Shown here in pieces: positions 1 through 24,910 of a stretch of DNA of 49,846 bases; the first letter of the stretch is position 1; every line of letters begins with the position of its first letter. This stretch comes from a virus. Lineage: Duplodnaviria > Heunggongvirae > Uroviricota > Caudoviricetes. The DNA is taken from IMG/VR virus record IMGVR_UViG_2529293147_000015. One strand, 5' to 3'. The notes beneath the pieces are model-generated. The model saw only the letters and a program-made list of their open reading frames with translations. It made no database searches and had not been told where the DNA came from. The translations under genes were made by a program, and so were the position numbers.

Positions 1-585
1 TTATTCCATAACAGGGGTTGCAGGCCACTCAATATCCGGTGCAGTTGATGTATCAACACGGTTCAGCAACACCCGATACTTTTTCCAGGCTTCCAGCAAT
101 GAGGTTTCTTCCTCCGTTGCGATTTCCAGATCTACAGCATCCTGAAGTGGCGCAATATGCTCACTGGCTACCTGCATCAGGCTGTTTTTTGTTTCTTCCG
201 CCTCTCGGATCCGGAACAGTTTTTCTGCTTCTGCATCTTTCACCCAGGCTGTGCCGTTCCACTTCTGAAACTCCCCTTCCGGCGATAACCAGGTAACATT
301 TTCCGGTAACGGACCGAGTTCAGAAATAAATAACGCGTCCCCTGACGCTACGTCATAAACCGTTTTACCCCGATGGTCTTCAACGAGATGCCACGATGCC
401 TCATCACTGTTGAAAACAGCCACGAAGCCTGCCGGAATATCTGGCGGTGCAATATCGGTACTGTTTGCTGGCAGACCTGTATGAGGCGGAATATATGCAT
501 CACCTTCACCAATAAATTCATTAGTTCCGGCCAGCAGATTATAAATTTTTATGGTCCGTGGTTGTTCACTCATTCTGAATGCCAT
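1..585 (-). CDS. tfa: Tail fibre assembly protein Tfa
   Basis: 194-aa [27 protein letters not shown]... ending ...[11 protein letters not shown], matching lambda Tfa as I remember it; stop codon at window positions 1-3. Confidence 0.85.
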
Positions 586-3500
586 TATGCAAGCCTCACA
601 ATGTAGTTAAATGCGATGTTTTTGACGGTGTTTTCCGCGTTACCCGCAGCGTTAACGGTGATGGTGTGTCCATGTGAGCCAATCGAAACAGAGTGCGTAT
701 GAGCACCAATACCGACAGTATGTGCGTGAGCACCTGCAGATGCAGCTGTGCCGCTGACACTATGAGTGTGCGCTCCTGCAGCACTTGTATTCACACTGGC
801 CGCAGACACAACCTTATGTACTGACCCATTTTGTGACCACTGGCTGACTGCTGATGCGCCTGTGACACTATGAGTATGGTTTCCGGCACTTGCGGCTGTA
901 CCGCTCACACTGTGCGTATGCGCCCCGGTGTTATTCGTGGATTTAGTGCCGTAATCAAACGACGATGTGGTTTTCGTCCCCAAATCCGTACTGGATACGC
1001 TGGCGCTGTGGGTGTGCGATTTAATGCCGTCCTGTTCCTGAGACAATACGGCCCGACCACTGGCAGGCTTGCCCTTAATCGTCCAGCTACGCATATCAGG
1101 GATCACGCCTGACGGATAAGCGGCTGCAAGTTTCGGGTATGCAGATTTGTCAAAAGTCTGCCCCTGCATCAGGGCATAACCAGACGGAACGTTATCTGAT
1201 GGCCACGGGATTGGTGCACCGACTGGATAAAACTCTGCAGGAGGATGAGCCGAGGTGTAAAGCTGCGCCCACGGCGACCAGTTTGCGTCGGTCGTATCCC
1301 GTCGTGAACGAATAAATGCCGGAGCATGAGCACCGCTTGTACCACTCCAGCCGATGAGTAACTCACCTTCGCCAACGGCTGTCATCCCTTTCAGGTGAAT
1401 GATATTTCCATACGTTGTTGGATATCCGTTGTTATACACCTCGTATAACTCAAGACCTGCTGCCCCCTGCGTATTGTCTGTCAGCGCGGCTACCCGACCT
1501 TTTGAAGCCAGATTAACTGATGATACTGCTGTTCCACCTGACGGTAGCGCCCCGATCTCTGATGCCGTTGGCTTATTTCTGGAGTTATAGTCCCTTCGCC
1601 AGCCAGGTGAATAATCTGTTCCGTGATTAATATAGGTAAACTGGGCGTTGGTTGTTCCGCCACCGCTGGATGTGGTCGGAGTGGTAATGCGGATCGTCAT
1701 CGCTGACTTTATCCCCATTACTTCAATGACAGCTCCGGCGAGATGAATATTACCGCAGCCAGTATCAGTAATGATTTTATTATTGCCATAAGACCAGGAA
1801 CCCTTGCACATCCAGTATGGATGGTTAAATGCTCCCTGAGAATCCAGCCACTCGATAAACTGTGCAGTCGTCCAGTTTCCTGTTGTTGTGCTTACTGACC
1901 CACCGAAGGCACGGCAGGCACCAATATTTTTCGTAAAGGTGTCTTTGCCAGGGATATCCGCACCGTTCTGATCTTTCTGCAGACGTTTCTCAGCATTGTC
2001 ATTGGCTGCTTTTACTGCCTTTGGCGTTGCCGCCAGCGTTTCAGACGTGCTGTTGGTCGCGCTGCTTAGCTGGATTATCCCTTTCTGTGCTGTCGTTGCA
2101 TCCTGTGCGGTGTATTTCCCGTTAGCCAGGTCATACGCGGCCTTAACGGCTTTTGGTGTTGCCGCCAGTGACTCGGAAGTGCTGTTAGTCGCACTACTGA
2201 GCTGTACTATCCCCTTTTTCGTCGTGCTCGCATCCTCAAGCGCCACAGCGGATGCAATATCCTCTGCCCGTTTTGCCGCTGTCTCAGCGCGCGTTGCTGC
2301 AGATTCCGCCGTACTTTTGCTCTGAGCTGCTGCCTTCGCACTACCAGCAGCCTCTGTCGCCTTCGTGGATGCCGTCGTGGCGCTGCCCTTCGCTGCTGAC
2401 GCCTGTCTGGTCGCCTCATCTTTTGAAGCAGACGCCGATGATGCCGATGACGCCGCCGAACTGGCGGACGATGCCGCTGCCGTTTTTGAGGATTCTGCAC
2501 GGGTTTCCGACGCTTTCGCGTTCGTTTCGGATGTCTTCGCTGCGGAAGCTGACCTCGCTGCTGCGCTGGCCTGTTCAGTGGCTTCGCCAGCCTTCGTTGT
2601 GGCTGTTGAAGCGGATGATGCGGCGCTTTCTGCCGATTTTCCGGCGGCGATGGCACTGGCTGAGGCCTGCCCGGCACTTGTTGACGCGGCACTGGCAGAC
2701 GACGCAGCCGCTGTTTTTGAGCCTGCCGCAGCTGAGGCGCTCTGTCCCGCTGCCGTCTCAGAAGACCTGGCGTTCGTCTCGGACGTTTTTGCCGCCTTCG
2801 CGGAATTTCCTGCCGCCGTTGCCGAGGAAGCTGCGCTACTGGCGCTCAAGGATGCGTTCGTTTCTGATGATTTCGCTGCCTCTTTTGAGGCCGCCGCATC
2901 CCGGGCTGAGGTGGCAGCTTCTGACGCTTTCGTGGTCGCGGTGGATGCAGAAGTGGCGGCTGATTGTTCTGACGCTGCGGCATTCGTTTCTGACGTTTTC
3001 GCCGCACCGGCACTGGTAGCTGCCACGCTTTTTGAGGACTCTGCAGCGGCAGCACTTTTTGAGGCTTCAGTGGCCTTTGTTGATGCCGTTCCTGCGCTGG
3101 AAGACGCTGACTGAGCCGACGAAGCGGCCTGTCCGGCTGACGTGCTGGCTGCACGTGCTGAATCTGCAGCATCAGTCGCATGGGTTGCCGCCTCACGGGC
3201 AGATGTGCTGGCATCGCCGGCTGACTTCTTCGCGGCTGCCGTGTTCTGTGCCACTACGGACGCGTTACGCGCCACCTCTTCCACCATCAGTTCAAAACGG
3301 CGCAGTGCCTCCGGACGGGCATCATCCTCCGTCATGGCACCGAGAAAATCATTCAGCGTACCGGGTTGGGAATCTTCATACACGGTGATGGTCCCGGCAT
3401 GTGACGGCGGGAATCCTTCCACCAACAGAATAACGCTGTACTGACCGTACTCAACGTCCATGCTGTAACGCCCGGCTTCATCCGGATTTTCTGAGGCCAG

Positions 3501-3611
3501 CGTGTTCACCACCACCGTGGTGCTGTTACGTTTTGCTTTCAGCTGGATTGTGCAGTTCTGTACCGGTTTTCCTGTGCCGTCTTTCAGTACACCTGAAATC
3601 TTTACTGCCAT
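585..3611 (-). CDS. stf: Side tail fibre protein Stf (lambda Stf-like); ATG at 3611 preferred over the GTG at 3617 used by the ORF track
   Basis: [26 protein letters not shown]... N-terminus, long Ala/Ser/Thr-rich repeat domain with KTSETNA motifs, HTHS(V/A)SG repeats and C-terminal ...[11 protein letters not shown]; RBS GGGGTGA before the ATG. Confidence 0.8.
2010..2270 (-). repeat. Tandem duplication (~132-bp period, 2 copies) inside stf encoding KGI(V/I)[11 protein letters not shown](S/T)[11 protein letters not shown]
   Basis: ttggcgttgccgccag at 2021 and ttggtgttgccgccag at 2153; duplicated 44-aa block in the translated protein. Confidence 0.6.
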
Positions 3612-3675: not shown

Positions 3676-4275
3676 TCAGAATTTATAACCGACACCAACG
3701 ATGAAACCGTCAGTGCGCCAGTCACCACTGCCGGAGCCTTCATAAGCAATATCAATGGCCACGGATTCGGTCGGGTTAAACTGCACGCCAGCCCCCCACG
3801 CCAGAGACGTGTTGCTGTGGCGACCGTCATCACTTCCGGTCAGCACATCGTGCTTTTTCCCCTTGTTGTCAGTTACGCGGAGATAATCCCCGGAGAAAGT
3901 CGACACACGGCTGTAAGCCACACCCGCCATCGCATACGCGCTGAACCATTCATTCACGCGCACAGACGGCCCCGCCATTACGCTGAACCAGCGGTTACGA
4001 ACGGAATCTTCATGCCAGCGGGTATCGCTGTAACGGGTCAGCTGGCGATTCTTGTCTCCTGCATAGCTGAATGACGTCACCATCCCCAGTGTGTCCGTAA
4101 ACTCATAACGGTATTTCACGTTAATCCCGTTCAGATCATCACTGCCGGGGACGTTCGTCGAGGCATGAAGATACCCCGCGCTCAGCGTGGACTGATGTTC
4201 AGACGCCCATGCAGGCGCACCGGATACGGCCAGACAAATGGCTGCGGACAAAATGGCGGCATAAAGTTTACGCAT
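3676..4275 (-). CDS. lom: Outer membrane protein Lom (Ail/Lom family) moron
   Basis: MRKLYAAILSAAICLAVSGAPAWA signal peptide, ...GFIVGVGYKF C-terminal beta-barrel signature; position between J and stf as in lambda. Confidence 0.85.
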   Translation of the reverse strand: MRKLYAAILSAAICLAVSGAPAWASEHQSTLSAGYLHASTNVPGSDDLNGINVKYRYEFTDTLGMVTSFSYAGDKNRQLTRYSDTRWHEDSVRNRWFSVMAGPSVRVNEWFSAYAMAGVAYSRVSTFSGDYLRVTDNKGKKHDVLTGSDDGRHSNTSLAWGAGVQFNPTESVAIDIAYEGSGSGDWRTDGFIVGVGYKF

Positions 4276-4297
4276 AATTACCTCTCGCTTTTCTGCA

Positions 4298-4323
4298 ATA
4301 AAAAAGGCACCATTTCTGGTGCC
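4298..4323 (-). terminator. Intrinsic terminator between J and lom
   Basis: Minus-strand hairpin GGCACCA-gaaa-TGGTGCC followed by TTTTTTATT. Confidence 0.5.
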
Positions 4324-4344
4324 CTTATATGGGTTATAACAATT

Positions 4345-7300
4345 TCAACGAATACTGATGCCGGAAGCGGCTTTTTTGGTCACAATCACCGTACAGTCGG
4401 TGATATTGCCTGCCCCCTGATTGCCTTTCTGGAAAATCTTAAACTCCAGAGTGACGCTTCCCCTGCCACTCGGCATATCAATAACTGCACTGTAACTACC
4501 GGGAATGGCCCCTTTAGTTTCTCTGGATGCGATTAATACGCCGTTTTTGCGAACTTCAAAACCATAACCCGTGTATCGCGTGCCTCCTGGGTTATTTCCG
4601 CTCCCCGGATCGTCATACGCTATACCGTTAAAAATAATGGGCGGAATAATAATCTGGCGGTCAAAGTTATGATCATCGCTGATGGTGACTGTAACCGTAC
4701 CGTTTGGTGTTTCCGTGTTACCCCACGTACCGACTTTTTTCGGGAAGGCTTTTGATACAGCTTTAACGAAATCTCCTCTGACCTGGGTCGCCTCCAGCAT
4801 GCCCTTAATCGTACAGTTCTGGTTAATCGTGACATTGTTGAGCGTTCCTGAGTTCGCATTCACACTGCCACTGATATCCGCATTTTTCGCCGTCAGTCTC
4901 CCGTCTGATGTCAGGGAAAATGCCGGAGGATTACCGCCGCTGGTAATGGTGGGGGCCGTCAGGCGTTTCAGGAACACTTCATTCATGAATATCTGATCGC
5001 CCTGACCAACAAACATCGGCTTTGTGTTGCCATTCGCAGGATTAATCATCGCAATCCTGTCTGCTGCCAGCAGCACCTGACTCTGCATGCCGTCAGGGGT
5101 GTTCTCAATACCGGCACCGATACCCGCAATATAAAGGCGTCCGTCCTGCATCTGCTGCAGCTTCACTGCCCACATGCTGTTCAGGTTATTATTTGTATCA
5201 ACCTGAACCTTCTGTATCTGCTGGATCGCTGCACTCTGGTCTTCCAGTTTCTTATTGACGGTCTGTGTTATTTCATTGCTGACATCCGTTATGGACGTCC
5301 TGATTTCAGTCAGGTCAGGCGCAAGCTGACCGTTATCAATCTGCGTCCACAGCTCCTGAGCCAGATGGGTTTTCCCTATCTCGCCTTTGAAAAAATCCAG
5401 ATAGCCTGATGCATCATCACTCGGCTGACCGACAGCCTCCACGAATGCCGATTTGCCAACGGTGTTCACACTGCGAACGTAAAAATAATAATCATGGCCC
5501 GGTTTGATATTGATACTGGCGGCTATCCAGTACAGTGCCGTACCAAGATAACGCGCGCTGGTTTCAACCTGCCTGATATCCGCAATCCGTTTTTCCGAGA
5601 ACCAGAACTCAAACTGTACCGTCGGGTCATAAACCGCAAGATGCGGCGTGGCGGTTATCTGAAAATAGCCCGGCGTCAGCTCAATCCGCGACGGCGCTGC
5701 CGGTGCGGCAATCCGGAACGATACCGACGCCGGATCGCCCTGCTGCCCCCACGCATTTACTGCTCGGACTGTCAGCCTGTAGTTCCCCAGAGCCAGTTGT
5801 GTGAAGCGGTAAGTGGTTTCCGTCGTCCGGGCCGTGCTGACCAGCCGCTCACGGCCGTCATCCGCTGCCACGGTCAGGCGAAGCAGGAAGCTCACGCCCT
5901 TCACCACCTTCGGCGTGTCCCAGCGCGCCAGCACCTGGTATTCCCCGCTGTCTGCGGTGACTTCTGCGGTCAGTGCTGCACCGCTGGCGGCGTGACACCA
6001 TTCACCGTGCCGCTCTGGTCGCCGTCAAAGTGCGCCCCGTTATCCACGATGGCTTCTTTTTCCGGTACATGCTGCACGGCAGTGATGGCATACGTGCCGT
6101 CATCGTTCTCACGGATACTCACACAGCGGAACAGGCGCTGGCGCAGCGTCGGCAGCTTAGCCCCCACACGCTGTATTCGCAACCCGTCAGGAACACGGCT
6201 CACTTTTACCTTCACGCCGTCGGTGACGGACTGGACCTCCACGCTGACCGGATTGCCACTTCCGTCAACCAGGCTTATCAGCGTGGTACCGGAGGATGGC
6301 AGCGTGATTTCACGGTCGAGCGTCAGCGTCCGGGTCTGGCTGTTCACCGCCAGCACGCGCCCGCCGGTGCTGATACCGGCATAGTCATCATCGCAGATTT
6401 CAATGACATCGCCCGGTACATGGCGAAGCCCTTCGCACCCACGCTGAATCCACGGTCTGCGTTTCCAGCAGTTCCGTTTTAATCAGCCACAGCCCGGCGC
6501 GGTGTGCCTGCCCCCGGCTGGTACAGCCAAAGGCATCCATCTTCGTGACGTTACGACCGTAACGGAATGGCCTGCGTGTCCTCCACAAGCTCTGTCGCCG
6601 TCTCCCAGCCGTTTCGGGTCAATCCAGTTCACCTCAACGGCATTATGGCGGTCCTTAGGGCGCTGAAGCTGTAGCGGAACGGCGCGCCATCATCCGGCAT
6701 CACCACATTACTGCGGTTATAGGTCCACACCTTATCTGATGGTCGGTCCTGCACGAACGTCAGCGTCTGCCCGTTCCATACCGGCATACAGCGCATCGCC
6801 GAGCAGAAATCACTGAGCACATCCCACGCCTTCGTGTGTGGTCAGAGCTTACAGGTGATGCGCGGCTCCGTCCGCCAAAGCCGTCCGGCACTGACTGGTC
6901 GCAGTACTGGCCGATGACATACAGCGCCCATTTTCCACATCCGCCGCACCAAGACGTTTCCCCATGCCGTAGCGGGTGGGTCAGCATATCCCACAGACAC
7001 CAGGCCATGTTTTGCTGTATGCGGTTAACGTTCCGTCCCAGATACCGCTGTATTGCGCGTCTGCGGGTTATAGTTCGACGGCACCTGCAGAATCGCCCGC
7101 GAAGATGATAATTACGGCTCACCTGCTGGCTGCCGAACTGCTCCGATCCACCTGCACGCCGACCAGTGCCGTGTTCGGGTAGCACTGTTTCACATCGATA
7201 TTTCGGTGTATGACGACCAGAGCGTTTTGTTCTGCAGCTGGTCTGTGGTGCTGTCCGGCGTCATCCTGCGCATCCGGATATAACGGGCGCGGCGGCAGGT

Positions 7301-7811
7301 TATCCACCACCACCGAGGCCAGATACTGCGAGGTGGTTTTGCCCTTAATGGTGATGTCTTTTTCCGTCACCCAGCCACCGTTACGTTGTATCTGAACCAG
7401 CAGGCGGACTTCCGACGGATTCCGGTCCCCCTTTGAGGTGGTTTCCACCAGTGCCTGCACACCGAAGGTAAAACGCAGACGGTCAATGTTTGCCGACGTG
7501 ATGGTCCGGGTGATCGGCGTGTCATATTTCACTTCCGTACCCAGCACCGTCTCGGAGCCGGAGGATTCAAATCCCTCCGGCGGTGTCTGCTCCTGCTCAC
7601 CGGCCCGGAACACCACCGTGACGCCGGAGATGTTGGTATTCCCCTCAGTGTCCAGCACCGGCGTACTGTTCAGCAGCACGCTTTTTAATCCATCCACCGG
7701 ACCTTCAACCGGCCCTTCGCTGATGGCATCGATCACACTCAGCAACTGCGTGGACTTCAGGTTGTCCTTCGCTTCGCGCGGGGTATGCCCCTTACTGCTT
7801 CCTTTACCCAT
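4345..7811 (-). pseudogene. J: Host-specificity / central tail fibre protein J, interrupted by multiple frameshifts
   Basis: J-like translation is split over ORFs 7119..7811, 6760..7185, 6629..6820, 6400..6588, 5970..6356 and 4345..5934 in different frames; lambda J motifs ([88 protein letters not shown]) appear across frames. Confidence 0.6.
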
Positions 7812-7871
7812 TCCTCACGCTCCATAAATGACAAAACCGCCCGCAGGCGGTTTCACATAAAACATTTTGCA

Positions 7872-8513
7872 TCAGCGACCAATCACCACAACCTGACCAC
7901 CGTCCCCTTCGTCTGCCGTGCTGATCTCCTGAGAAACCACGCGTGACCCCACGCGCATTTCCCCGTACAGAACAGGCAGAACATTGCCCTGGGCAACCAT
8001 GTTATCCAGTGAAGAAAAATAGGTATTCTGTTTGCCGTTATCCGTTGTCTGTGTGCGGGGGGTTTTGGGTTTAGGGGCCAGCATCTGTGCAACACCGCCA
8101 AGCGTCATACTGGCACCGAGAGAAAACAGCAGATTACTCGCCATAATTCCTACCCCCGGCATCCATATAGCAACCGCCATAACAGCCGCCCCCAGCACAG
8201 CCTGAAACACACCGCCACTTTTGGCTCCTGCCAGACGCGGCACGATATGGATCACGGCACCATTTTCCAGCGGCTCATTAAGACGGGCAGACAATTCGGT
8301 TTCACCTGCATCACGCCCGGCAATGCGTACCTGGTACCAGCCGTCGCTCAGTTTCTGACGAAATGCCGGGATCTGCATGGCCAGCGCCCGGATGGCTTCG
8401 GACCCCGTTTTCACTCGAAGGTCGATGCGGCGGCCAAATCGTTGTAAATCCCCGTAAAGGCAGATGCGTGCCATGCCCGGTGACGCCAGAGGGAGTGTGT
8501 GCGTCGCTGCCAT
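7872..8513 (-). CDS. I: Tail assembly protein I
   Basis: 213-aa ORF in the lambda I position, hydrophobic central segment. Confidence 0.75.
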   Translation of the reverse strand: MAATHTLPLASPGMARICLYGDLQRFGRRIDLRVKTGSEAIRALAMQIPAFRQKLSDGWYQVRIAGRDAGETELSARLNEPLENGAVIHIVPRLAGAKSGGVFQAVLGAAVMAVAIWMPGVGIMASNLLFSLGASMTLGGVAQMLAPKPKTPRTQTTDNGKQNTYFSSLDNMVAQGNVLPVLYGEMRVGSRVVSQEISTADEGDGGQVVVIGR

Positions 8514-9154
8514 TTGTCGGTATACCTCTCTCGTTTGCTCAGTTGTTCAGGAATATGGTGCAGCAGCTCGCCATCACCACAGTAAATGGCGGCATGATTC
8601 GGCACCGATGAACCAAAACAGCACAGCAGCACATCGCCCGGCTGCGCCGCTGACAACGGCACCTGATACAGCCCTGTGGCCTCCAGATTATCCAGATAGA
8701 GATTCTGACCGTTACGCCACCAGTCATCCCCGCGATGAAAATCCGGCATCTCAATCCCCGCCAGATGATAAGCATCCCGGAACAGCGTGTAACAGTCCGT
8801 CACCCCGTGCTCAAAGCGCCGCCCGGTGAGATGCGGCACACAGCGGAACTTATGAATCGCCCCCCGGCAGACCAGCCACCACGGCAAATCACTCTGCACC
8901 TGCAGCCGCCGGTCAGCCTCACTCAGCCAGGGCAGACCACCGGGGTGGCTGTGGACCAGCGCCACAATCTCACCCTGCATTTCTGCCTGCAGCCAGTCCT
9001 CCGGCGACATCCGGAAATACGCCTCCGGCTCACCGGAGATATTCACGCAGGGAAAATATCTTTCCCCCTCCGGCGTGCTTACCACGAAGCCGCACGACTC
9101 CGCTGGCGCACATCGCCGGGCGTGCGCCAGAATCGCTGATTCTGTCTCTGTCAT
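8411..9154 (-). CDS. K: Tail assembly protein K (peptidase-like); 3' limit uncertain, overlaps I
   Basis: HSHP metal-binding motif and Cys/His region in the K position between L and I. Confidence 0.7.
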   Translation of the reverse strand: MTETESAILAHARRCAPAESCGFVVSTPEGERYFPCVNISGEPEAYFRMSPEDWLQAEMQGEIVALVHSHPGGLPWLSEADRRLQVQSDLPWWLVCRGAIHKFRCVPHLTGRRFEHGVTDCYTLFRDAYHLAGIEMPDFHRGDDWWRNGQNLYLDNLEATGLYQVPLSAAQPGDVLLCCFGSSVPNHAAIYCGDGELLHHIPEQLSKRERYTDKWQRRTHSLWRHRAWHASAFTGIYNDLAAASTFE

Positions 9155-9159
9155 GGGAT

Positions 9160-9858
9160 TTACTGCGAAAGTTTGTTAATGGAAAGGAAGCCGCCAAAGT
9201 TGCAGACGTTATTGCGAAACTTACAGCCACTCAGGCATTTGCTGCATTTATCCTTCGTGATATCGGACGTCGGCTGGTCATATTCATCCGCGACAGCCGG
9301 ACCGTGATAACCGCACTCATCACCGCGATAGGTCCAGGTGCAGGTGTTGGCCAGCATGATACGTCCCGGAAAAACAGCGCCGTCCGTTTCCGTCGGCGTG
9401 GACAGTACAAAAGAGGCACTCACCGCGCTCAGTTCGCTGCACTGCTCAATGCGCCAGCGGCTGATCACCTCCTGCTCCGGATCGGCGTCACTGTTTCCGT
9501 TGACGAAGTTCACCGCATCCAGAAAACGGGCGTAAACCTTACGCCTGACCACCGTTCCGCCGACCAGACTCTGCAGGTCTTCCGCCATCCCGGTGACCAT
9601 GCCGTGCAGGTTAGAAACCGTCAGTGTCGGACGGGCAGCACTGCCCTTGCCATTCAGTTCAAAACCACTCCCCTGAATGGGATACGCCTGATACTGTCGC
9701 CCCTGCCAGGTGACCGGCTCACCTTTTTCGTTCTGCTCATTACAGAAAAAATAACGTTCTCCACCGACCTCTGTCAGATCGATTTCCCAGAGCACCACGC
9801 TGGCCGACTGCTCCGCACGGGTGCATTCATTCAGTGTTTCCTGCTGTATATCCTGCAT
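9160..9858 (-). CDS. L: Minor tail protein L
   Basis: 232-aa ORF, same length and position as lambda L. Confidence 0.8.
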   Translation of the reverse strand: MQDIQQETLNECTRAEQSASVVLWEIDLTEVGGERYFFCNEQNEKGEPVTWQGRQYQAYPIQGSGFELNGKGSAARPTLTVSNLHGMVTGMAEDLQSLVGGTVVRRKVYARFLDAVNFVNGNSDADPEQEVISRWRIEQCSELSAVSASFVLSTPTETDGAVFPGRIMLANTCTWTYRGDECGYHGPAVADEYDQPTSDITKDKCSKCLSGCKFRNNVCNFGGFLSINKLSQ

Positions 9859-10187
9859 CAGTTCACCACCTGCTCAAAATCTGCCGTTACAGTCACCCAT
9901 AACGCCCCAACGCGTGTCGACCATTTACGACAAACCACCATGACTGGTTTCCAGCCATAAGGCGGCACCCACTGAAACGCCCTGACACCGCCATGCCGCG
10001 CCAGAAAATCCTCCAGTGACTGATGTTCTCCTTTACGTATCCGGATAGTCACACTGTAAACAGACAATAAATTATTCAGTCCTGCCGGTCGCCGCTGTTC
10101 ATAGCCATCCCCCAGCTTTACCGTCAACACCTTCGGTTCCGATGCAACTGTCATATCAGGACGAATTTTCCAGTGAAACGTCTCCAT
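9858..10187 (-). CDS. M: Minor tail protein M
   Basis: 109-aa ORF, same length and position as lambda M. Confidence 0.8.
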   Translation of the reverse strand: METFHWKIRPDMTVASEPKVLTVKLGDGYEQRRPAGLNNLLSVYSVTIRIRKGEHQSLEDFLARHGGVRAFQWVPPYGWKPVMVVCRKWSTRVGALWVTVTADFEQVVN

Positions 10188-13100
10188 TACCGATACACTC
10201 CGCTTAACTGACCGCCATCACGGGACTGCTGTTGCATAAAGTCCGCTGCAGCTTTTTTCCCGAGGTCATAAACCACCTTCAGGGCAGCCGGACCTATCTG
10301 CCCGTTCGTACCGTCGTTATTGATCGCGATGTTGTACTGCGGGGCAAACATCACCATGCCTGAACCACCAATATCCGCCACAACACCCAGCTTACCGTCG
10401 GCACCACGACGCAGTGGCAGAATGGCTTCAGGCCCCGCTTCTCCCATCACCCCCGCGCCTTTTGCAAAGGCAAAAAACGTCGGGCGGTTAACCACTGAGC
10501 CACTGTAACGGCTCAAATCCGCAGACTGATAAACACCGCCATCCGCATTGGGCGTCACACTGGCAGCGGATGCGCTCCCCCAGCCAAACGCCGAACCAAT
10601 CCCCTTCACCGCCTGCATAATGGCCATCTGCGCCATGATTTTTGCCAGGTCGGAAAGAAGCGAGGCGGTAAAGGATTTGAAATTCAGTTTACCTGTCGTG
10701 CAGAACGTCGCCAGTGCATTACCTGCACTGTTAAATGCCGCTGTAAACATCTGCTCAGCAGTTCCTGCCGCATTATCCGCATCTGCCGTAAAATTCTGAA
10801 ACGCCCGCATGGCACCGTTTTTCCAGTCTGCCTGCATCAGTTCCTGCTCCTGCCAGTAGCGTCTGTTTTCGTTCAGTTGCCGGTTAAGACTGTCTGTCAG
10901 CGTCTGCTCAGCATTCCGGTATTCATCTGTGCCATATGTTCCTTTCCGCTTACTGTCACGCTCCAACTGTTCCCGCTGCTGCTGATATTTTTGTTGCAGA
11001 CTGAACTGTGCCTGGTATCGCTGACGCTGTTTATCCCCCATCCCTGTCGTGGCGATATCCAGGTCATGTTGCTGACGCAGAACCCGCTCCTCTTCCGCCA
11101 GCTGGCTGGCAAGCTGAATGGATTTTTTCTTAAGGTCATTCAGCGCCGTCTGCTTCTGCAGCTCCTGCTGTTTTGCATCCAGCAGCGTCAGCGCCTGAAT
11201 CAGTTCATCCTTATGCGCCAGCACGCTTTTTTCATCTGCCGTCAGCTTTTTACCGGCTAAATCACTGATACGCTGCTGCAGGGCCAGAAGCTGCTTATGC
11301 GCTTCCGTCATTTTTTTCGTGGTCAGTCCCGCGGACTGTCTGGCGGCGGCGATCTGCCCCTCCACCTGCGCCTGTTGCTGGCTGTACTGCAGTAATAACC
11401 GGGTGGCCTCATCATTACGGGTGGCAGGCGTTTCTTTCTTAATGGCTTTTTTGTGACGTTTATTTTCACGCTGTATCGCTGCGTCCCTGACCGACTGATC
11501 TGCGTACTGCATGGCATTAATACGCGCAATTTCACGCTGATGTCGTGCCGCTTCCGTTTCGTTCATCCGGTTCAGCGCGGCATTTTCAGCATTCCGGCGT
11601 TTCTTTTGCTCCTGATAATTCCGCTCTGCCTGCTCTTTTGCATCCTGTAAATCTTTCTGGCGCTTTTTCTCCTGAAGTTCATCAAGGCGCTGCTGGTCGT
11701 ATTCCACTGTGGTGGATGCATTTGTCCAGGGCGATTTTTTCGCACGCTGAATTTTTTCCTGCAGCGCCGCAATCTGCGCATCAAGGGAATCATTACGCCC
11801 GATATTCATGGCGGCATCCCAGAACTGCTTCCACCAGTCAGATAAGGTTTGCAGCGTACTGCCCAGCGCATTGAGATTATTATCAATATCAGATGTGCGT
11901 TTACCGGTTTCCTCTGCCAGCGCTGACATGGCGATCCGGGCAGCATCACTGGCACGCCCCTGTTCCCCGAGAACACGGATTTGTTCAAGCTGGGTGGCAG
12001 TCAGGAAATGCAGTTCATTATCCAGCGTCCTGGCTGCATTTACCGGGTCATCCTTCAGTCGCTTAAACTGACTGATGGTGTCGCTGACAGACTGCCCCAC
12101 TGAACTTTCCATTTGCGCGGCAGCTTTCGCCACCATGGCGATATCACCTCCACGAAATGCACCGCTGCCAACCGCCTGAGCCAGCGCACTGGCTGCAGCA
12201 TGTTGCGTGATACCATTCCCGGAAATGGCGCGACTGAGAGTCCACAGCTGTCCGGTAGTGATGCCCGCATAATGCCCTGTCAACGCCAGCTGACGATTAA
12301 ACACCTCCCCCTCCTTCTGACCGTCATACCAGGCCTTTCCCAGCCCGACAACAGCAGCAGTGAGTCCACCGATAACCCCGCCGACAGCCATGCCTTTCGG
12401 GGACATCAGCGCGTCAATCCATCCGGCACGGTTAGCCAGGGTGATCCCGGAGCCACGAAGCGCACCGAAATTACCCCGGGCAATTTCACCTATCAGAACA
12501 CCTATCTCCTGGCGGGCCGCCGCACTTTTCAGCCCCAGCGAATGCGTGACCTTCCCGGCTTTTTCCATTTTGCTGATATACACCTCAGCCGCACTACTGA
12601 CACCCAGCTGCGCGGCTTTTGCCCTGAGCAGCTCCGTGGATGAAAGATTTTGAGCGGATACCTGCTCCTTCAGCCGCCGGATAAAGGCCGTCTTCTGGCG
12701 GGTGGCGGATTCTTCAGCCTGAGCCAGCACGCGGGTTTTTGCCGTCACTTCGGAGATTAACGCCAGATAATCCTGCTGCGCGATGCCACCATTGTTTCTG
12801 GCCTGACGGACCTGCTGCTGAATACGCTGCAGCTCCTGCAGTCCGGCCCCCGCCTGTTTCACACTGTCAATCTGACGATAAAATGCAGCAGCGGCTTTAT
12901 CCTGAGCAGCAGCCAGTGCCGCCGCCTGCGCCTGCTCCTCACGCATTTTCCGGTTCAGGGCATCAAGTCGCTGACGGGTCTGTTCCACATCCTCTGACAA
13001 CGAAACATGCGCCTGCGCATTCCCCGCCAGTGCCTGAGTCTGTTTCACCGCGGTAGTCGCCGCCTGCTTCTGACTCGCTTCAAACTGTCTGACCCGCGCT

Positions 13101-13219
13101 TCTGCGCGCGCCGCTTCGCTGGCGGTACCATTGAGTTGCGCTTTAATACGCGGAAGCTGTTCCTTAAAATCAGCCGTATCAACACTTAAATCAATAACAA
13201 GGTCAGCTATCTGGCTCAA
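10187..13219 (-). CDS. H: Tail tape measure protein H
   Basis: 1010-aa coiled-coil-rich ORF between G/T and M. Confidence 0.85.
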   Translation of the reverse strand: MSQIADLVIDLSVDTADFKEQLPRIKAQLNGTASEAARAEARVRQFEASQKQAATTAVKQTQALAGNAQAHVSLSEDVEQTRQRLDALNRKMREEQAQAAALAAAQDKAAAAFYRQIDSVKQAGAGLQELQRIQQQVRQARNNGGIAQQDYLALISEVTAKTRVLAQAEESATRQKTAFIRRLKEQVSAQNLSSTELLRAKAAQLGVSSAAEVYISKMEKAGKVTHSLGLKSAAARQEIGVLIGEIARGNFGALRGSGITLANRAGWIDALMSPKGMAVGGVIGGLTAAVVGLGKAWYDGQKEGEVFNRQLALTGHYAGITTGQLWTLSRAISGNGITQHAAASALAQAVGSGAFRGGDIAMVAKAAAQMESSVGQSVSDTISQFKRLKDDPVNAARTLDNELHFLTATQLEQIRVLGEQGRASDAARIAMSALAEETGKRTSDIDNNLNALGSTLQTLSDWWKQFWDAAMNIGRNDSLDAQIAALQEKIQRAKKSPWTNASTTVEYDQQRLDELQEKKRQKDLQDAKEQAERNYQEQKKRRNAENAALNRMNETEAARHQREIARINAMQYADQSVRDAAIQRENKRHKKAIKKETPATRNDEATRLLLQYSQQQAQVEGQIAAARQSAGLTTKKMTEAHKQLLALQQRISDLAGKKLTADEKSVLAHKDELIQALTLLDAKQQELQKQTALNDLKKKSIQLASQLAEEERVLRQQHDLDIATTGMGDKQRQRYQAQFSLQQKYQQQREQLERDSKRKGTYGTDEYRNAEQTLTDSLNRQLNENRRYWQEQELMQADWKNGAMRAFQNFTADADNAAGTAEQMFTAAFNSAGNALATFCTTGKLNFKSFTASLLSDLAKIMAQMAIMQAVKGIGSAFGWGSASAASVTPNADGGVYQSADLSRYSGSVVNRPTFFAFAKGAGVMGEAGPEAILPLRRGADGKLGVVADIGGSGMVMFAPQYNIAINNDGTNGQIGPAALKVVYDLGKKAAADFMQQQSRDGGQLSGVYR

Positions 13220-13517
13220 TTCTTATTCCTCCCGCGATACCTTCCCCCAGAAACATCAGCTCTTCATCTGTCCGGACGGGCGCTTCTGTCTCTGAAGGCA
13301 ACAGGCTGAACATATCCGCCGCCACGGTTTTTCCGGAAACCATCTGCACAATCAGCGTTTTCAGTGTGGCAAATTGCGCATCCAGCCACACATCACTGAA
13401 ACTCTGCCGCCGGAAATAATCCCCCCCCTCTCCCAGTTCTGTGGCTGACATTTCTGACAGCATTCGCCGCCAGTCGCCCCGCCGGAACTCCCGGGCCAGC
13501 CGCATGACAAACTGCAT
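13203..13517 (-). CDS. T: Tail assembly chaperone T frame (expressed as G-T fusion by -1 frameshift)
   Basis: ORF in -1 frame relative to G, immediately downstream and overlapping the G 3' end. Confidence 0.6.
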   Translation of the reverse strand: MQFVMRLAREFRRGDWRRMLSEMSATELGEGGDYFRRQSFSDVWLDAQFATLKTLIVQMVSGKTVAADMFSLLPSETEAPVRTDEELMFLGEGIAGGIRIEPDS

Positions 13518-13525
13518 TTCCTGCG

Positions 13526-13915
13526 TCAGGACTTTTCCGGCGTCAGCACCTCCTTCACGTCATCCCCCTCTGTCGCCACTGTCAGTGCCATACCGCTCAG
13601 CGCCAGAATGCTTTCCGCCGCCATCCCCAGCGCATCCCAGGACCATGTCACGCGCACGGAGGAAAAAAGCGCCGCCACATTCTGAGACTGGTCGGCATTC
13701 CACAGCGAACGGGAAACCAGCCAGGCGTTGATGTCCATCCCCATTTCCATAAAAGCAATCTGGCGGGCCCCTTCTTCCATTCCTGCAGAAGCCTCATCAA
13801 ACTGCGCCGCGCGTTCACGGGCATAAGCCAGGTATTCCACACGCTGCAGACCAGACAGTTCATTCAGTACCACCGACTGATTGCCGTAATTAAACGTATC
13901 CTGTTTCAGAAACAT
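13526..13915 (-). CDS. G: Tail assembly chaperone G
   Basis: 129-aa ORF between V and T; ends ...VLTPEKS with candidate slip site at 13529..13540. Confidence 0.7.
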   Translation of the reverse strand: MFLKQDTFNYGNQSVVLNELSGLQRVEYLAYARERAAQFDEASAGMEEGARQIAFMEMGMDINAWLVSRSLWNADQSQNVAALFSSVRVTWSWDALGMAAESILALSGMALTVATEGDDVKEVLTPEKS

Positions 13916-13975
13916 TTCTCTTCTCCCCGAATAAAAAACCCCGGCGAACCGGGGCTGATGATAAACATGGCCCTG

Positions 13976-14749
13976 TTATCCCCGGGTACGTCCGGTACTC
14001 TTCTCCTCAGCAGGGGCCACGGTCACCTTGACCACCTGCCCCGTACGGCCATCACCGCTCATACCCACAATACTGACCGTCCCTTCCTGGCGGGCAGATA
14101 CCGTAGCCACAAGGCCGCTCAGGCTTACCGTTGCTGTCTGCGGATCCGTGGAAAACACCGTGAGCGTTTTATCCGAGGCGTTTTCCGGTACAAGCACAAA
14201 CGTCAGTTTGGACGTTTCACCAGGATGCAGTGTCACCGCCATCGGTGTCACCGTCACACCGGTGACGCTGACCACCTCCTGACACTCTTCCGCCAGGTAC
14301 GGACGCCCAATCCCGGTGATTTTGATGGTCCGGGTCATCACTTCCGTTGACGTCACCGCTTTGCCCAGCGAACTCAACCAGCCACGAAAAACATCAACTG
14401 TGCCGTTGGGGTACAGAATGCGAAACGCACAAACCTCGCCGGAATAAAACAACTCAACCAGTTTTTTCTGTCCGCTGTCGCCCGGACGCCATGCCAGTGT
14501 GGCAGACGTATCGCCAGCGGTTTTCTGGCCCTGAGATGTGCTCTTCCAGTCCGCATTCTCATCATCAAGATACGTGTCGTCTTCCGCATCAGCCGTCATT
14601 TCGCCCGGCTGCAAATCCTTCACCATTGCCAGTCGCAGCCAGTCCGTGTCTGACAATGCAGACGCAAACGGATCTCCCATCCCGGTATACATCCAGAATG
14701 TTGTCCCTGCGCCTTTCGTTTTCTCCAGTGGATTCGGTGTGGACATCAC
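13976..14749 (-). CDS. V: Major tail protein V
   Basis: 257-aa ORF in the lambda V position with C-terminal Ig-like (Big_2-type) region. Confidence 0.85.
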   Translation of the reverse strand: MMSTPNPLEKTKGAGTTFWMYTGMGDPFASALSDTDWLRLAMVKDLQPGEMTADAEDDTYLDDENADWKSTSQGQKTAGDTSATLAWRPGDSGQKKLVELFYSGEVCAFRILYPNGTVDVFRGWLSSLGKAVTSTEVMTRTIKITGIGRPYLAEECQEVVSVTGVTVTPMAVTLHPGETSKLTFVLVPENASDKTLTVFSTDPQTATVSLSGLVATVSARQEGTVSIVGMSGDGRTGQVVKVTVAPAEEKSTGRTRG

Positions 14750-14768
14750 TCCTCCTTACATTATTTAT

Positions 14769-15170
14769 TCAGTTCGTGTAGGCGATCTGATACGTGATTT
14801 CCGCCATCGCCCACGTCGCCATCTCATCATCGCGCTGGTAGTTAAACCCCTGCGGTGTCATGGTGTCGATCAGCCCGGAAAGCGCCGGTATATGCCTCAG
14901 CGCCGGATAAATGCTATTTTCCATCCACTCATCCAGCTCTGAATCCGGTGCCTGCGCACGGATAAACACAGCGATATGCAGAACGGCCTGCCAGTCGTCC
15001 TCATCTGTCATTTTTCCGGTATACCGGGCATCGCTCAGCCAGACCGCCACAGCGGGCAACTCCTGTGCATCAATAAAGGCCGGAAGCCCGTCAAAAAATG
15101 TGGCGCCCTCGCCACACTCCTCACACAGACGTGCCAGTACCGCCTGACGGATTTTTGTATGTCTGTTCAT
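14769..15170 (-). CDS. U: Tail terminator protein U
   Basis: 133-aa ORF, lambda U length and position. Confidence 0.8.
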   Translation of the reverse strand: MNRHTKIRQAVLARLCEECGEGATFFDGLPAFIDAQELPAVAVWLSDARYTGKMTDEDDWQAVLHIAVFIRAQAPDSELDEWMENSIYPALRHIPALSGLIDTMTPQGFNYQRDDEMATWAMAEITYQIAYTN

Positions 15171-15745
15171 CGTGTCAGAAATAACCTCAGTTGCTGCTTC
15201 AGTGCATAACCCAGTTGTTTCGGCATCTCCGTTTCAGCAATATGCCGACTGGCTTCCGTAAATGCCTGCGTCAGCGGTCCGGACAACGGGATTTTCACCA
15301 CATCAATGGGGTAACGATTTTTGCCGTCAATACGCCGCATCACATGCCAGCGACCGTTCGCCAGTTGCTGAATAAACGCATCCCGGAAAAGATATTTGCC
15401 CACCTTCAGCACACTTCCCCGGTACCGTAGCTTTCCGCCACGCCGCGCCAGCCTGACCTGAGCCGCCCCCAGCTTAATGGCTGGCAGGTTGCCCCGGTTA
15501 ATCCGGATACGGGCATACATTTTTCCTGACGGGCTGGCCTTCAATACCCGGACGCGCTGACGCACCGTTTTCAGGGGGATCCCTTTGACGTGGTTGTCAC
15601 CCGCAACGGTATTCTGCGCAACCTGCCGGGTAGCTACCGAGACCGCTTTCTGCGCTACACGGTTTATCGCCCATGCGCTGGCCTGTGGCACCATACGGGT
15701 ATCAAGGCTGTTCAGATTACGGATGGCGTTTTCAAGACCTTTCAT
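15167..15745 (-). CDS. Z: Tail completion protein Z (start at MKGLENAIRNL preferred)
   Basis: 192 aa from the internal ATG, matching lambda Z length; short overlap with FII. Confidence 0.7.
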   Translation of the reverse strand: MKGLENAIRNLNSLDTRMVPQASAWAINRVAQKAVSVATRQVAQNTVAGDNHVKGIPLKTVRQRVRVLKASPSGKMYARIRINRGNLPAIKLGAAQVRLARRGGKLRYRGSVLKVGKYLFRDAFIQQLANGRWHVMRRIDGKNRYPIDVVKIPLSGPLTQAFTEASRHIAETEMPKQLGYALKQQLRLFLTR

Positions 15746-16106
15746 AATATCGCCCAGTACTGATATCACCCCGGGAAGTGTCACACCGTTGCAGGCGGAT
15801 ATAACAGCATCCCCCGTCGTCCGGAGTAATGCGATCCACCCGAAAAAGATCCCCACCAACCTCCAGCGTATCCAGACGGCGCAGTCCCGTAATATCTGCT
15901 GTTTTCACAAACAAAGACGGTGAAGAATCTTCAAACCGTACTCCTCCGGCAACGAAAGAAATTTTTTCAGGATCATCAAAAACCCCCCTGAGTGTTTTTC
16001 CTTCAAGCTGACCGGACGTAATTACCGCCGTAATCCCCATATGACAAAGAATGACCTCGTCAGCCATGGCGACGGCGGCATCAAACGGATTATCGAAATC
16101 TGCCAC
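15732..16106 (-). CDS. FII: Head-tail joining protein FII
   Basis: MADFDNPFDAAVAMADE... with ...DRITPDDGG, matching lambda FII. Confidence 0.8.
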   Translation of the reverse strand: MADFDNPFDAAVAMADEVILCHMGITAVITSGQLEGKTLRGVFDDPEKISFVAGGVRFEDSSPSLFVKTADITGLRRLDTLEVGGDLFRVDRITPDDGGCCYIRLQRCDTSRGDISTGRYYERS

Positions 16107-16119
16107 CTTTCCCCCACAT

Positions 16120-16503
16120 TCAACACATTTTCACGAGGCCACTTTCTGCCATGCTGGCTGCCACCACAGCAGATACACGAAACACTTCTCCCGGACGTAC
16201 AAATTCCACGGGGTTATCCCGTGTGCCGTGGAGTGCATTGACATGTAACATCACCACAGCTTTGACCATGACCATATCCACAGAATTTCGGTTCTCACTC
16301 TCCCCACGTTCGGATCGTGTTTCGTTTTTTTGTTGTGGTTCTTCATCATCCTTATACAGGCCGTCTGAACCATCACTTAATTCTTCTTCCCACTCCGCCA
16401 GACGTTGTTCAAGATCAGCTTTAGAGCCTGAAATATCGGCATCGCGCCCGAGTGCTACCGCCAGCTCCTGAAGACGCGCTGTTATTTCTTCTTTTGTCAT
16501 CAC
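16120..16503 (-). CDS. DNA packaging protein FI-like
   Basis: 127-aa acidic ORF between E and FII. Confidence 0.5.
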   Translation of the reverse strand: MMTKEEITARLQELAVALGRDADISGSKADLEQRLAEWEEELSDGSDGLYKDDEEPQQKNETRSERGESENRNSVDMVMVKAVVMLHVNALHGTRDNPVEFVRPGEVFRVSAVVAASMAESGLVKMC

Positions 16504-16550
16504 ATCTCTCCTGTGCGATAAAGAAAAAGGCGGGAATATCCCACCTGACC

Positions 16551-17579
16551 TTATTTCACCTTAACTACCACAAACGCGTCCGGATCCGGCAACACCATCA
16601 ACGGCGCAGATTGCGTCATGGTATATTCGCACCCCGGGTCCCCCACCTCTAACCAGTGTTTCGGATAACGAATTGCAGAGGTGATCCCTTCACTCAACGC
16701 CTGGTTATCCTGGATTGCGCCATAACAACGGACACCATCCACCTGAGTGTTTCCAAGAATCAGTGTGCCTTCCGGCAGATAGCGCTGCTCATCCCCGCTT
16801 TCATCAACATACGTTGTTTTCGCCACCATGATGGCCAGATCACCGTAATAACCTTTAAAAGAAACCACGGAACCCAGATCTTTCAGCGCGGTTTCCAGTT
16901 CAGATTTTGAGCCACGGCGGGTATCCAGTTTTTCACGAAACAGCTTAAAACCGTTCAGCATACGCCAGACAGTACCGTCCATAATCGCAATATTGATGGT
17001 ACCGGAAGCAAAATCGCAGTACGCATCCAGATCATGCGTCGGATCAAAGGTGTCAACATTCTGTTTTGACCATTCGCGTCCATCTGCCTGCGTTATGTTA
17101 TTGGCGGCAGAACGTCCAAAATCCACTTCCACCGTCTCAAACTGTTCACCGCTCATGGTGTACTTACCCTGCAGAACAGCGCTGACCGCCTGCATTTCTT
17201 CCACCTGCACAATCGCCTGCTCTTCCTGTTTCAGGTTGTCAGTCAGAATACGCAGGCGACGGTAGGCCGGGTCATTAAGACGGGCCGGATCTTCCCCCGG
17301 AAGACGCTCCACCGCCTGCTGATAATCCAGCCGGTGTTTTGGTTTAACATAGCCGGGGCGTAACACGCGGGTTTCACCACCACGACTGCGCAGTACCTTA
17401 CCTGACACAACCGGAGACACATATGCCGCAACCGGTGTTTTTCCAGTGATTTTATCCAGCATCACTTCCTGAGTATGGAAAGTGACCGTACGACGAAAAA
17501 ACAGCTCCAGAAACAGCGCACGGAATTTCACTTTCTGCTCGGTGTAGCCGAGCAACTGACGCGTGGTAAATAACCCCAT
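16551..17579 (-). CDS. E: Major capsid protein E (start at MGLFTTRQLL preferred)
   Basis: Motifs YVSPVVSG, RSRGGET, PGYVKPKH, VEEMQAVSAVLQGKYTM, EKLDTRRGS, MTQSAPLMVLPDPD match lambda E. Confidence 0.9.
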   Translation of the reverse strand: MGLFTTRQLLGYTEQKVKFRALFLELFFRRTVTFHTQEVMLDKITGKTPVAAYVSPVVSGKVLRSRGGETRVLRPGYVKPKHRLDYQQAVERLPGEDPARLNDPAYRRLRILTDNLKQEEQAIVQVEEMQAVSAVLQGKYTMSGEQFETVEVDFGRSAANNITQADGREWSKQNVDTFDPTHDLDAYCDFASGTINIAIMDGTVWRMLNGFKLFREKLDTRRGSKSELETALKDLGSVVSFKGYYGDLAIMVAKTTYVDESGDEQRYLPEGTLILGNTQVDGVRCYGAIQDNQALSEGITSAIRYPKHWLEVGDPGCEYTMTQSAPLMVLPDPDAFVVVKVK

Positions 17580-17648
17580 AATTGACTTTCCTTTAAAAAC
17601 ACAAACGGGCCGCATCACGACCCGTTTTTTCAGTTAATCATTTCACCA

Positions 17649-17984
17649 TCAGGCGTGGCTGATGGCACTTCCCACAAACGCGTTGGCTTTTTTCACCGCA
17701 TCCACCGAATCCGGCCAGACCAGCGATTCGGTGGCAAACGTACCACTTTTGTAGTACGTCAGTGTGGGCTCGGTCCCGGCCAGCGCCAGTACCAGCACCC
17801 CCACAGCCGTTCCGGCTTTCTGACCATCCCATGCCACCAGTTTTCCGCTGGCGTCATCCAGCATCAGTGGCGTCAGTGAAGGCGTGGCAACACTGATACC
17901 ACTGGTACCTGTTGCGGTATATACCGGATCGCTTCCGGCAAAAATGCGCCCGTCCGCGCGCTTTTCTGTGGTGGTTTTAATCAT
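17649..17984 (-). CDS. D: Head decoration protein D
   Basis: TPLMLD...KLVAWDG...YKSGTF motifs of lambda gpD. Confidence 0.8.
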   Translation of the reverse strand: MIKTTTEKRADGRIFAGSDPVYTATGTSGISVATPSLTPLMLDDASGKLVAWDGQKAGTAVGVLVLALAGTEPTLTYYKSGTFATESLVWPDSVDAVKKANAFVGSAISHA

Positions 17985-18024
17985 TTTCTCAGTCTCCTGA
18001 TTTATCTGAATCACGGATCCACGC

Positions 18025-19365
18025 TTACGGCATACTCATCAGCAGTTCTTTTTCCCCGTTCCCGGCAGTTCCGCCACCGGAAACGGCACTGGCGGCATGC
18101 TGTGCCATGAAGCGCTCAAAAAGTGTTACCTGTGACGGTTGCGATACTGATGGCGCAGCTGCCAGCAGCGTTTTCGCCTGCTCCACTGTCATTCCCGGCT
18201 GTTCAGCCAGCGTCCGTGCCAGTTGTTCACGTCCTTTTGCTTCCGGCAACGCAATAATTTGATCGCCGGAACTTGCCGTGCCGGTTGCCGGTGCCGCTGC
18301 CAGTAATGTTTTTGCCTGCTCAACTGACATTCCCTGCTGACCTGCCAGCATCTGCGCCAGTTTTTCGCGTCCTTTCGCCTCCTGACAATTCAGGATCCCC
18401 ATCACGCGCTGATTTTCCTGGGACACCGCTTCAGCAACGGTGAGATTTTTTGGTGTCATCGTATTCTCCTGTGTAACAGAGTCGTTCAGAGCAGAAACCA
18501 TTACATCAACGGCATCTGCAGCATTAATCAGTTGATCAGCCAGGCCTGTATCAATGCCTGCCTGACCGTCATAAACGGCAGCCTCGGTATTCATCACCAC
18601 CTCTGAACTCAGCCCCGTATAAAGTGCCACCTTGTCGACAAACATCCGGCGGGCATCATCAATACGGCGCTGAAAATCCGCACGCACACCTGTCGGCAAC
18701 GCCTGAATACTGTTGCCGTCAACCTTGTGCTGCCCGGAGTAAATCAGCGTGATATCCACGCCTTCCTGTGCCAGTTGTTTCTCGTAACTGGTGTGCGCCA
18801 TCATCACACCAATCGAACCAATTTTTGCCGTCTGCGTGACCAGCCGACGCGTACAGGCCGCCGCCAGCAACATGGCGGCTGAACAGGCCATGTCATTACA
18901 CAGCGCCCACACGGGCTTCTGTTCCCGCAGACGGTAAATCATGTCAGCACAGTCAAACGCCCCGGCAGCCTGACCGCCCGGACTGTCGATATCCAGTAAA
19001 ATGCCGCGTACATCCGGGTCGTTCACCGCTGACTTAAGACGGGCAGTCAGACCGTCATAACTGGTCATACCGGAATATGGCTGCAGGGTACCCATTTTAT
19101 GTACCAGCGTGCCGCTCACCGGCAGAATGGCAATACCATTTTTCACCTGGTAACTCTTTACCGGACGCGGACCACCAGTCATATAATCGGTAACCTCCAG
19201 CTGCATACCATCGGCATCAAGCTGAACGGCCTGCTGCGGAACGGCAAGGCTGCCCGCCCCCATCTCCTTACCCAGTGCGCAAAAGAAAACCCGCGCATAG
19301 GCGGGTTCCAGTAAAAGCGGCTCATTAAATGCCATCGCGGCAATATGTGATAAATTACAGCGCAT
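18025..19365 (-). CDS. C: Minor capsid protein C / prohead protease (scaffold Nu3 expected in-frame at the 3' end)
   Basis: 446-aa ORF between B and D with ClpP/S49-like peptidase region. Confidence 0.8.
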   Translation of the reverse strand: MRCNLSHIAAMAFNEPLLLEPAYARVFFCALGKEMGAGSLAVPQQAVQLDADGMQLEVTDYMTGGPRPVKSYQVKNGIAILPVSGTLVHKMGTLQPYSGMTSYDGLTARLKSAVNDPDVRGILLDIDSPGGQAAGAFDCADMIYRLREQKPVWALCNDMACSAAMLLAAACTRRLVTQTAKIGSIGVMMAHTSYEKQLAQEGVDITLIYSGQHKVDGNSIQALPTGVRADFQRRIDDARRMFVDKVALYTGLSSEVVMNTEAAVYDGQAGIDTGLADQLINAADAVDVMVSALNDSVTQENTMTPKNLTVAEAVSQENQRVMGILNCQEAKGREKLAQMLAGQQGMSVEQAKTLLAAAPATGTASSGDQIIALPEAKGREQLARTLAEQPGMTVEQAKTLLAAAPSVSQPSQVTLFERFMAQHAASAVSGGGTAGNGEKELLMSMP

Positions 19366-23572: not shown

Positions 23573-23699
23573 AAAACATTTCCATATCAAATGCAGGGTC
23601 CGACATGGAAGTGCTCAAAAACGTCTTTTTCGGGCACTTTCATGTCGTACCTTTTACGGATGTGATTTATGAAAAAACAATGAGTTATACACGAGAAGT

Positions 23700-24906: not shown

Positions 24907-24910
24907 CTCA

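Follow-up and report, generated by a model that had tools for sequence, protein, structure and literature searches.

The window analysed here, a stretch of 49,846 nucleotides, belongs to contig AQAZ01000143.1 (80,294 bp) of the draft WGS assembly GCA_000358535.2 of E. coli P0304816.2. Gene calls and Pfam searches on the source contig give the tail gene order H-M-L-K-I-J-lom-stf-tfa, which is also the gene order of phage lambda, and gene J, encoding the lambda tip attachment protein or central tail fibre, is located between I and lom. It occupies positions 4345..7811 on the minus strand, with its ATG at 7811 and the end of its stop codon at 4345. The genes around it, all read on the same strand, are uninterrupted, as a preliminary description of this stretch had claimed for I, lom, stf and tfa: the tail tip assembly gene I (7872..8474, 200 aa, PF06805) is intact, and so are lom, for an Ail/Lom outer-membrane protein (3676..4275, 199 aa), stf (585..3611, 1008 aa) and tfa (1..585, 194 aa). 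The genes K, L, M and H in the window are uninterrupted, too.

For J as deposited, the expected single ORF of about 1130-1230 codons is absent. The gene is split among seven ORFs on the minus strand, at 7119-7811 (230 aa), 6760-7185, 6629-6820, 6483-6632, 6400-6588, 5970-6356 and 4345-5934 (529 aa), which confirms the earlier observation of J peptides in at least six ORFs in different frames. Six Pfam domains of J, namely FNIII-A_GpJ, Phage-tail_3, Ig_J, Ig_J_second, Phage_Tail_Tip and Ig_GpJ_C, are all found across the fragments, and this domain set is again that of lambda. The locally compensated shift reported within ORF 7119-7811 was also recovered. That is, the segment IRMRRMTPDSTTDQLQNKTLWSSYTEI is located at 7199-7279 (minus strand) in the +1 frame, bounded by a deletion of two bases at 7281/7282 and a deletion of one base at 7200 that restores the frame.

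From 4200 to 8000, the window shares 97.5-97.9% identity with many annotated I-J-lom segments of phages and E. coli chromosomes, and the intact relatives of the window J are each 31-32 nt longer. For example, the gpJ genes of E. coli O104:H4 2009EL-2050 (WP_000515635.1) and of phage phiSTEC1575-Stx2k, which show this level of nucleotide identity to the window over I-J-lom, are continuous ORFs of 3498 nt, whereas the deposited J has 3467 nt and is distinguished by 31 missing bases and 41 mostly silent substitutions. The gpJ region of O104:H4 2009EL-2050 (L001) served as the alignment reference for the window J. In the blastn alignment with it, the 31 nt are missing in 26 gap openings, every one of which is a deletion of 1-2 nt in the window, and no insertion occurs in the window J. 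Note that the event count depends on the aligner, with 26 openings in blastn and 21 events in MAFFT for the same 31 nt. All these gaps are confined to the zone 5973..7282 (minus strand), corresponding to J nt 531-1869. The window positions adjoining the blastn deletions, with (2) denoting the loss of two bases, are 7281(2), 7200, 7146, 7093, 7056, 7026(2), 7022, 7011, 6976, 6974, 6933, 6871, 6848, 6846, 6845(2), 6834, 6832, 6656, 6613(2), 6565(2), 6448, 6435, 6183, 6178, 6158 and 5973. A 27th single-base gap lies just outside J, at window position 4326 between J and lom. No second copy of the J segment was detected within the window by self-blast.

On both sides of the deletion zone, J is free of lesions and aligns to the reference without gaps. 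The 5' part (7283..7811, minus strand, J nt 1-530) is translated as in the intact J as far as ...NLPPRP. The 3' part (4345..5972, minus strand) holds the 529-aa ORF, which includes the receptor-binding C-terminus and displays four full-length Pfam J domains, and positions 4500-5749 of the window have zero mismatches to the reference in blastn. Some other short-read contigs (L103-L106) have their first base within J, 3 nt ahead of the 529-aa ORF.

When the 31 gaps were filled with the bases of the reference, J was restored to a single ORF of 1165 codons with the terminal stop only and no internal stop codon. The refilled gene differs from the reference at 41 nucleotides, 33 of them in codons that still specify the same amino acid, and the protein shows six amino acid differences, some of them being alignment noise near the deletion clusters. 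A PDB search with the repaired protein recovers lambda J (8iyk_J) with E=0 and 2149 bits. The likeness of the repaired protein to lambda J (PDB 8IYK and related structures) is best over residues 1-836, while residues 866-1164 match as a separate stretch in the PDB search and are covered by the J chains 9wca_J and 8xcj_Z. The deposited J differs from lambda J in lacking the 31 nt, so that no single ORF can be read. Most likely, the true cellular J is one continuous ORF of about 1165 codons.

The remainder of the prophage gives a measure of how unusual the deletion zone is. Over positions 8314-27441, the window is 99.3-99.9% identical to a relative from a draft assembly (L090), with no net frameshift, the indels being a single base between L and K and a pair that compensate each other. 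Since these adjacent 19 kb or so are without net frameshift against such a close relative, the clustering of the deletions in J is far beyond chance. The collection has the exact I protein of the window in 4600 index blocks, and at all ten places listed an intact J (1132-1159 aa) comes next. Within the same prophage family, six of the seven loci listed carry an intact J of 1233 aa, and the seventh, AQDV, which has a neighbouring AQ-series WGS prefix, has both I and J fragmented. A protein look-up for other contigs with the exact tape-measure protein (1010 aa) or stf protein (1008 aa) of the window returned none; contig breaks or further consensus differences are a possible reason for the missing counterparts in the sibling assemblies described below.

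The positions of the deletions were then compared with the natural variation of J, in a MAFFT alignment of the window J with 81 intact alleles (the reference and 80 loci from viral contigs). Among these alleles, 23 of the 31 deleted columns are polymorphic, as against a background of 16.5% of columns over the same 1.4 kb (Fisher p=8.6e-13). Each of the 21 deletion events contains a variable column, whereas random placement gives 6.9 such events on average and at most 16, and none of 100,000 permutations matched the observed 21. In addition, 21 of the 31 missing bases are at third codon positions. The deleted bases show no homopolymer bias in their run-length distribution, with 19 of 31 (61%) in runs of length 1 compared with 59% in the background, and homopolymer or slippage errors are ruled out by this equality. 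A mutational process would have no reason to choose silent sites that vary between alleles, but a consensus drawn from the reads of several slightly different copies has one. Paralogues from other genomes were also taken as proxies, in order to see how far they could predict the deletions. The proxy pair, consisting of the J 5' end of L090/L094 and the J of the TMP-1077 prophages L108-L114, predicts 7-10 of 35 deleted sites, which is about 3-4 times a rough, uncomputed chance estimate of about 2 of 35 and is only a partial overlap. That the prediction falls short is explained by the mosaic nature of J and by the use of proxies in place of the strain's own copies.

Further evidence comes from the assemblies related to the source. 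The 230-aa J fragment is found in exactly one contig, AQAZ01000143.1, where it is annotated for E. coli P0304816.2 as a hypothetical protein. An 83-aa fragment that falls in the protein cluster of the 230-aa one has four accessions, for which the two names listed are P0304816.3 and P0304816.14, and it leads to four further contigs in the assemblies AQBA, AQAX, AQBB and AQBE (L085-L088). To judge from their naming, their flanks and the study discussed next (PMC4462620), these appear to be clonal sibling isolates of P0304816.2. In that study, multiple ETEC colonies per patient were sequenced on HiSeq2000 with 300-bp inserts at >200x coverage and assembled with the Celera Assembler, and clonal populations were found in 10 of 12 patients, the exceptions being P0299917 and P0299438 (Sahl et al., 2015; PMC4462620). 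The main text does not name P0304816 (Sahl et al., 2015; PMC4462620), and nothing relevant was found in the literature on AQAZ00000000 or P0304816; the isolate naming pattern suggests that the P0304816.2 assembly most probably stems from this study.

Aligned to the same reference, the five assemblies have different but overlapping sets of deleted J positions, that is, 31 in the window, 30 in AQBA, 14 in AQAX, 45 in AQBB and 13 in AQBE. The union comprises 54 positions, of which only nine are common to all five, and the pairwise Jaccard index ranges from 0.21 to 0.60. These differences arise between contigs whose flanks are nearly identical. For example, L086 and L087 are separated by a single mismatch and no gaps along 4.7 kb of downstream sequence but by 49 gap positions in the zone of K, I and the 5' part of J, and L085 and L087 by 5 mismatches and no gaps along 4.5 kb of upstream sequence, followed by 33 gaps. 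In L085 the small deletions extend into I and lom. Inherited mutations would be shared by all colonies of a clone, whereas errors in assembling a repeat may differ from one assembly to the next.

The contigs also leave the J zone into different prophages, as seen from the lengths of the tape-measure protein (1010, 1018 or 1077 aa) and of the lom protein (199 or 203 aa). L085 and L087 have the 1077-aa tape-measure gene upstream in common and differ in the lom and fibre genes downstream; conversely, L086 and L087 have their downstream genes in common and differ in the upstream tape-measure genes. In the four other P0304816-series assemblies, the J 5' segment has at least three different surroundings. 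On this basis, the P0304816.2 strain appears to carry several lambdoid prophages with a nearly identical module of K, I and the 5' two-thirds of J. Such redundancy is in line with what is seen in the species. The 1.5 kb around the deletions recur at 95-99% identity in about 4500 complete E. coli records, where the median genome holds 3 copies, while the head-to-tail region 7800-27500 has only about 90-93% identity to its nearest relatives in complete genomes.

Taken together, the positions and sets of the deletions suggest that the frameshifts in J are very probably consensus errors that arose when several copies of a prophage segment were collapsed in a short-read draft assembly, rather than decay of the gene. 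The fragmentation of J is real in the deposited file, but almost certainly not in the bacterium. Several resident prophages with nearly identical K-I-J(5' two-thirds) modules would supply the reads, and these would be merged into one consensus, in which a base may then be lost at columns that differ between the copies. This could occur in two ways: a mismatch could be drawn as two staggered gap columns and then called as a gap, or an ambiguity code could be called and later stripped. It should be noted that the simple staggered-gap model does not fully fit some of the 2-nt events, which have only one variable column. Either way, deletions of 1-2 nt at copy-variable sites would break the frame, and the unique flanks, namely the head and tail genes, the 3' end of J, lom and stf, would be assembled cleanly.

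The preliminary description had offered two readings of the locus, local sequencing indels or a decaying J in a defective prophage, with emphasis on the latter. The decay reading, according to which J has gathered frameshift deletions and the prophage can make no infectious tails, could point to the 26 frame-breaking gaps that are present in the deposited gene, and defective lambdoid prophages are common in E. coli. However, the deletions coincide with allele-variable sites and are mostly at third codon positions. A pseudogene would be expected to have lesions independent of polymorphism and biased to homopolymers, whereas all 21 events are on variable columns; nonsense codons or a non-synonymous excess would also be expected, whereas the refilled J has zero nonsense mutations, there are zero insertions, and most of the substitutions leave the amino acid unchanged. 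Nor are the same lesions seen across the assemblies of what appears to be one clone, with only 9 of 54 common to the five, and the deletion sets differ two- to three-fold among these P0304816-series assemblies despite their nearly identical flanks. The neighbouring 19 kb are undamaged, and a single gene with 31 indel bases and only about 41 substitutions does not show the spectrum of neutral decay. With lesions at allele-variable sites, sets specific to each assembly and no other sign of relaxed selection, the emphasis on decay is contradicted, and we consider genuine pseudogenisation extremely unlikely. Since there is no evidence here for a decayed J, no claim on the defectiveness or infectivity of the prophage is made from this contig. 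The other reading, local sequencing indels, is essentially right, once it is narrowed to consensus errors over a collapsed multi-copy repeat as opposed to random read errors.

Random errors independent of the repeat, such as those caused by low coverage, poor reads or homopolymer miscalls, would also be in keeping with a draft assembly as the source and with lesions that are all deletions and all local. However, the lack of homopolymer bias noted above, the reported Illumina coverage of >200x and the recurrence of nine identical positions in five separately deposited assemblies speak against them, and randomness would ignore the variation between alleles, whereas the positions are strongly tied to polymorphic columns. 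Such errors are therefore a very unlikely source of the pattern. A third explanation places the deletions in vivo: recombination between the J paralogues of three resident lambdoid prophages could leave heteroduplex mismatches that are turned into 1-2 nt deletions, a real hypermutation specific to each colony. This would also put deletions at paralogue-variable sites and give different sets to sibling isolates. If it were true, each colony of one patient would have its own heavily frameshifted J set, and a previously undescribed, error-prone inactivation of paralogous prophage genes would have been found. But we know of no such repair outcome in E. coli, where mismatch repair converts or aborts and does not delete. 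Moreover, dozens of events per colony would be needed in one module only and within a single infection, and the switching of the contigs between prophage contexts across the zone speaks for an assembly fault. We therefore regard colony-specific hypermutation as barely conceivable. Jointly, decay, random errors and hypermutation take up only a very small share of the probability. Programmed frameshifting or recoding, which was considered as well, is ruled out by the 26 shifts in 1.3 kb and by the sets differing across the five assemblies.

Collapsed multi-copy repeats in short-read drafts are a known class of artefact and a source of spurious pseudogenes. Like other artefacts of this class, the errors in the window are restricted to a segment that most E. 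coli genomes hold in several copies, and they fall at copy-variable sites; they are not reproducible between assemblies with nearly identical flanks, and they are accompanied by inconsistent contig joins. The difference is that the usual outcome at a repeat is a contig break, as with L103-L106, whereas the assembler here would have passed through the repeat and dropped bases.

If the frameshifts are consensus errors of this kind, the fragmentation of J is without biological significance, but it has some use for data quality. A combination of features, namely deletions only, without homopolymer bias, at third codon or allele-variable sites and within a multi-copy module, could serve as a diagnostic of spurious pseudogenes that needs no reads. 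Fragments such as the 'hypothetical proteins' of 230, 128 and 83 aa have probably inflated the pseudogene counts, the pan-genome families and the prophage-completeness calls derived from these deposits. The same fault is present in the four sibling assemblies, in AQDV and in a J fragment of the P0304777 series, the J fragment of E. coli P0304777.15 clustering with one of the J fragments of the window.

The same type of small-deletion damage found in the tail-tip gene J of the window is present in genes I and J of four P0304816-series assemblies (L085-L088), and in one of them, L085, it also extends to lom. It is not confined to this series, for the same kind of damage occurs in the AQDV01000018.1 locus (L093), which carries a neighbouring AQ-series WGS prefix, and in a J fragment (P0005) from E. 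coli P0304777.15 of the P0304777 series. Therefore, the fault looks systematic for these deposits, beyond the contig of the window alone. Four further contigs (L103-L106) start at the equivalent of window ~5934-5937, 3 nt upstream of the GTG start codon of the 529-aa ORF in the lesion-free 3' part of J, and these contig ends are ~40 nt downstream of the last J deletion of the window. Such a start point fits a nearby repeat boundary at which other assemblies are broken.

Fragmented genes were also observed in a group of near-complete assemblies of the GCA_0456... series (L097 and L099-L101), with contigs of 1.3-5.2 Mb, where fragmented L, K, I and J adjoin the same 529-aa C-terminal ORF of J. 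These may be uncorrected long-read assemblies, and if so, spurious prophage pseudogenes would have another origin here.

Some differences outside J could be read in two ways. Compared with close relatives, two insertion/deletion pairs in gene K, both compensated, and one single-base difference in the L-K junction are located at window 8656-8660, 8986-8989 and 9161, and the reading frames are all kept. These differences may be natural variation, or the consensus problem of J may recur here in a milder form. In gene C, which encodes the S49 protease/scaffold protein (ORF 18025-19365), the window is one copy short of its relatives in a 138-nt in-frame tandem repeat, the difference being located at window 18158-18382. 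The product has 446 aa in the window, compared with 492 aa in the draft-assembly relative L090, whose repeat has 2.6 copies with 89% identity, and 538 aa in the relatives L091 and L096. The copy number may vary naturally, or the assembler may have collapsed a second repeat here.

Neither the exact tape-measure protein (H, window 10187-13219) nor the exact side-tail-fibre protein (stf, window 585-3611) was found on any other contig of the collection, including those of the other P0304816-series assemblies, which may break or differ in these two genes too. Inside stf and antisense to it, the public annotation calls a gene at a 249-aa ORF (window 2365-3114, + strand). The ORF falls together with a strong AT skew (-0.42 over window 2001-3000); this part of the fibre gene is biased in composition, and the gene call there is probably spurious.

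As for the prophage ends, the Qin-site prophage of ETEC E1373 (L084) has at each of its ends an 18-nt sequence that the window carries just beyond the integrase gene (window 47591-48886), at 48921-48938. Past this sequence, window 48939-49846 corresponds to DNA that L084 has at the opposite end of its prophage, on the ydfJ side. In the other direction, the source contig passes from tfa into a helicase/AbiTii island adjoining smpB. This is either an unusual integration geometry or a mis-joined contig.

Within the prophage early region, a cargo-like block (window 33063-39319) contains genes for an MFS transporter, a gamma-glutamylcyclotransferase, a LysR regulator, a DUF2254 protein and a BCCT transporter. 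The block also occurs in Qin-site prophages of ETEC strains, and the HSP spanning it has 97.7% identity to L084. In addition, two phage-borne tRNA genes, tRNA-Arg(TCT) and tRNA-Met(CAT), are located in the late-region leader on the - strand (window 27456-27532 and 27630-27705). At the equivalent locus of E1373, tRNA-Arg and tRNA-Ile are annotated.
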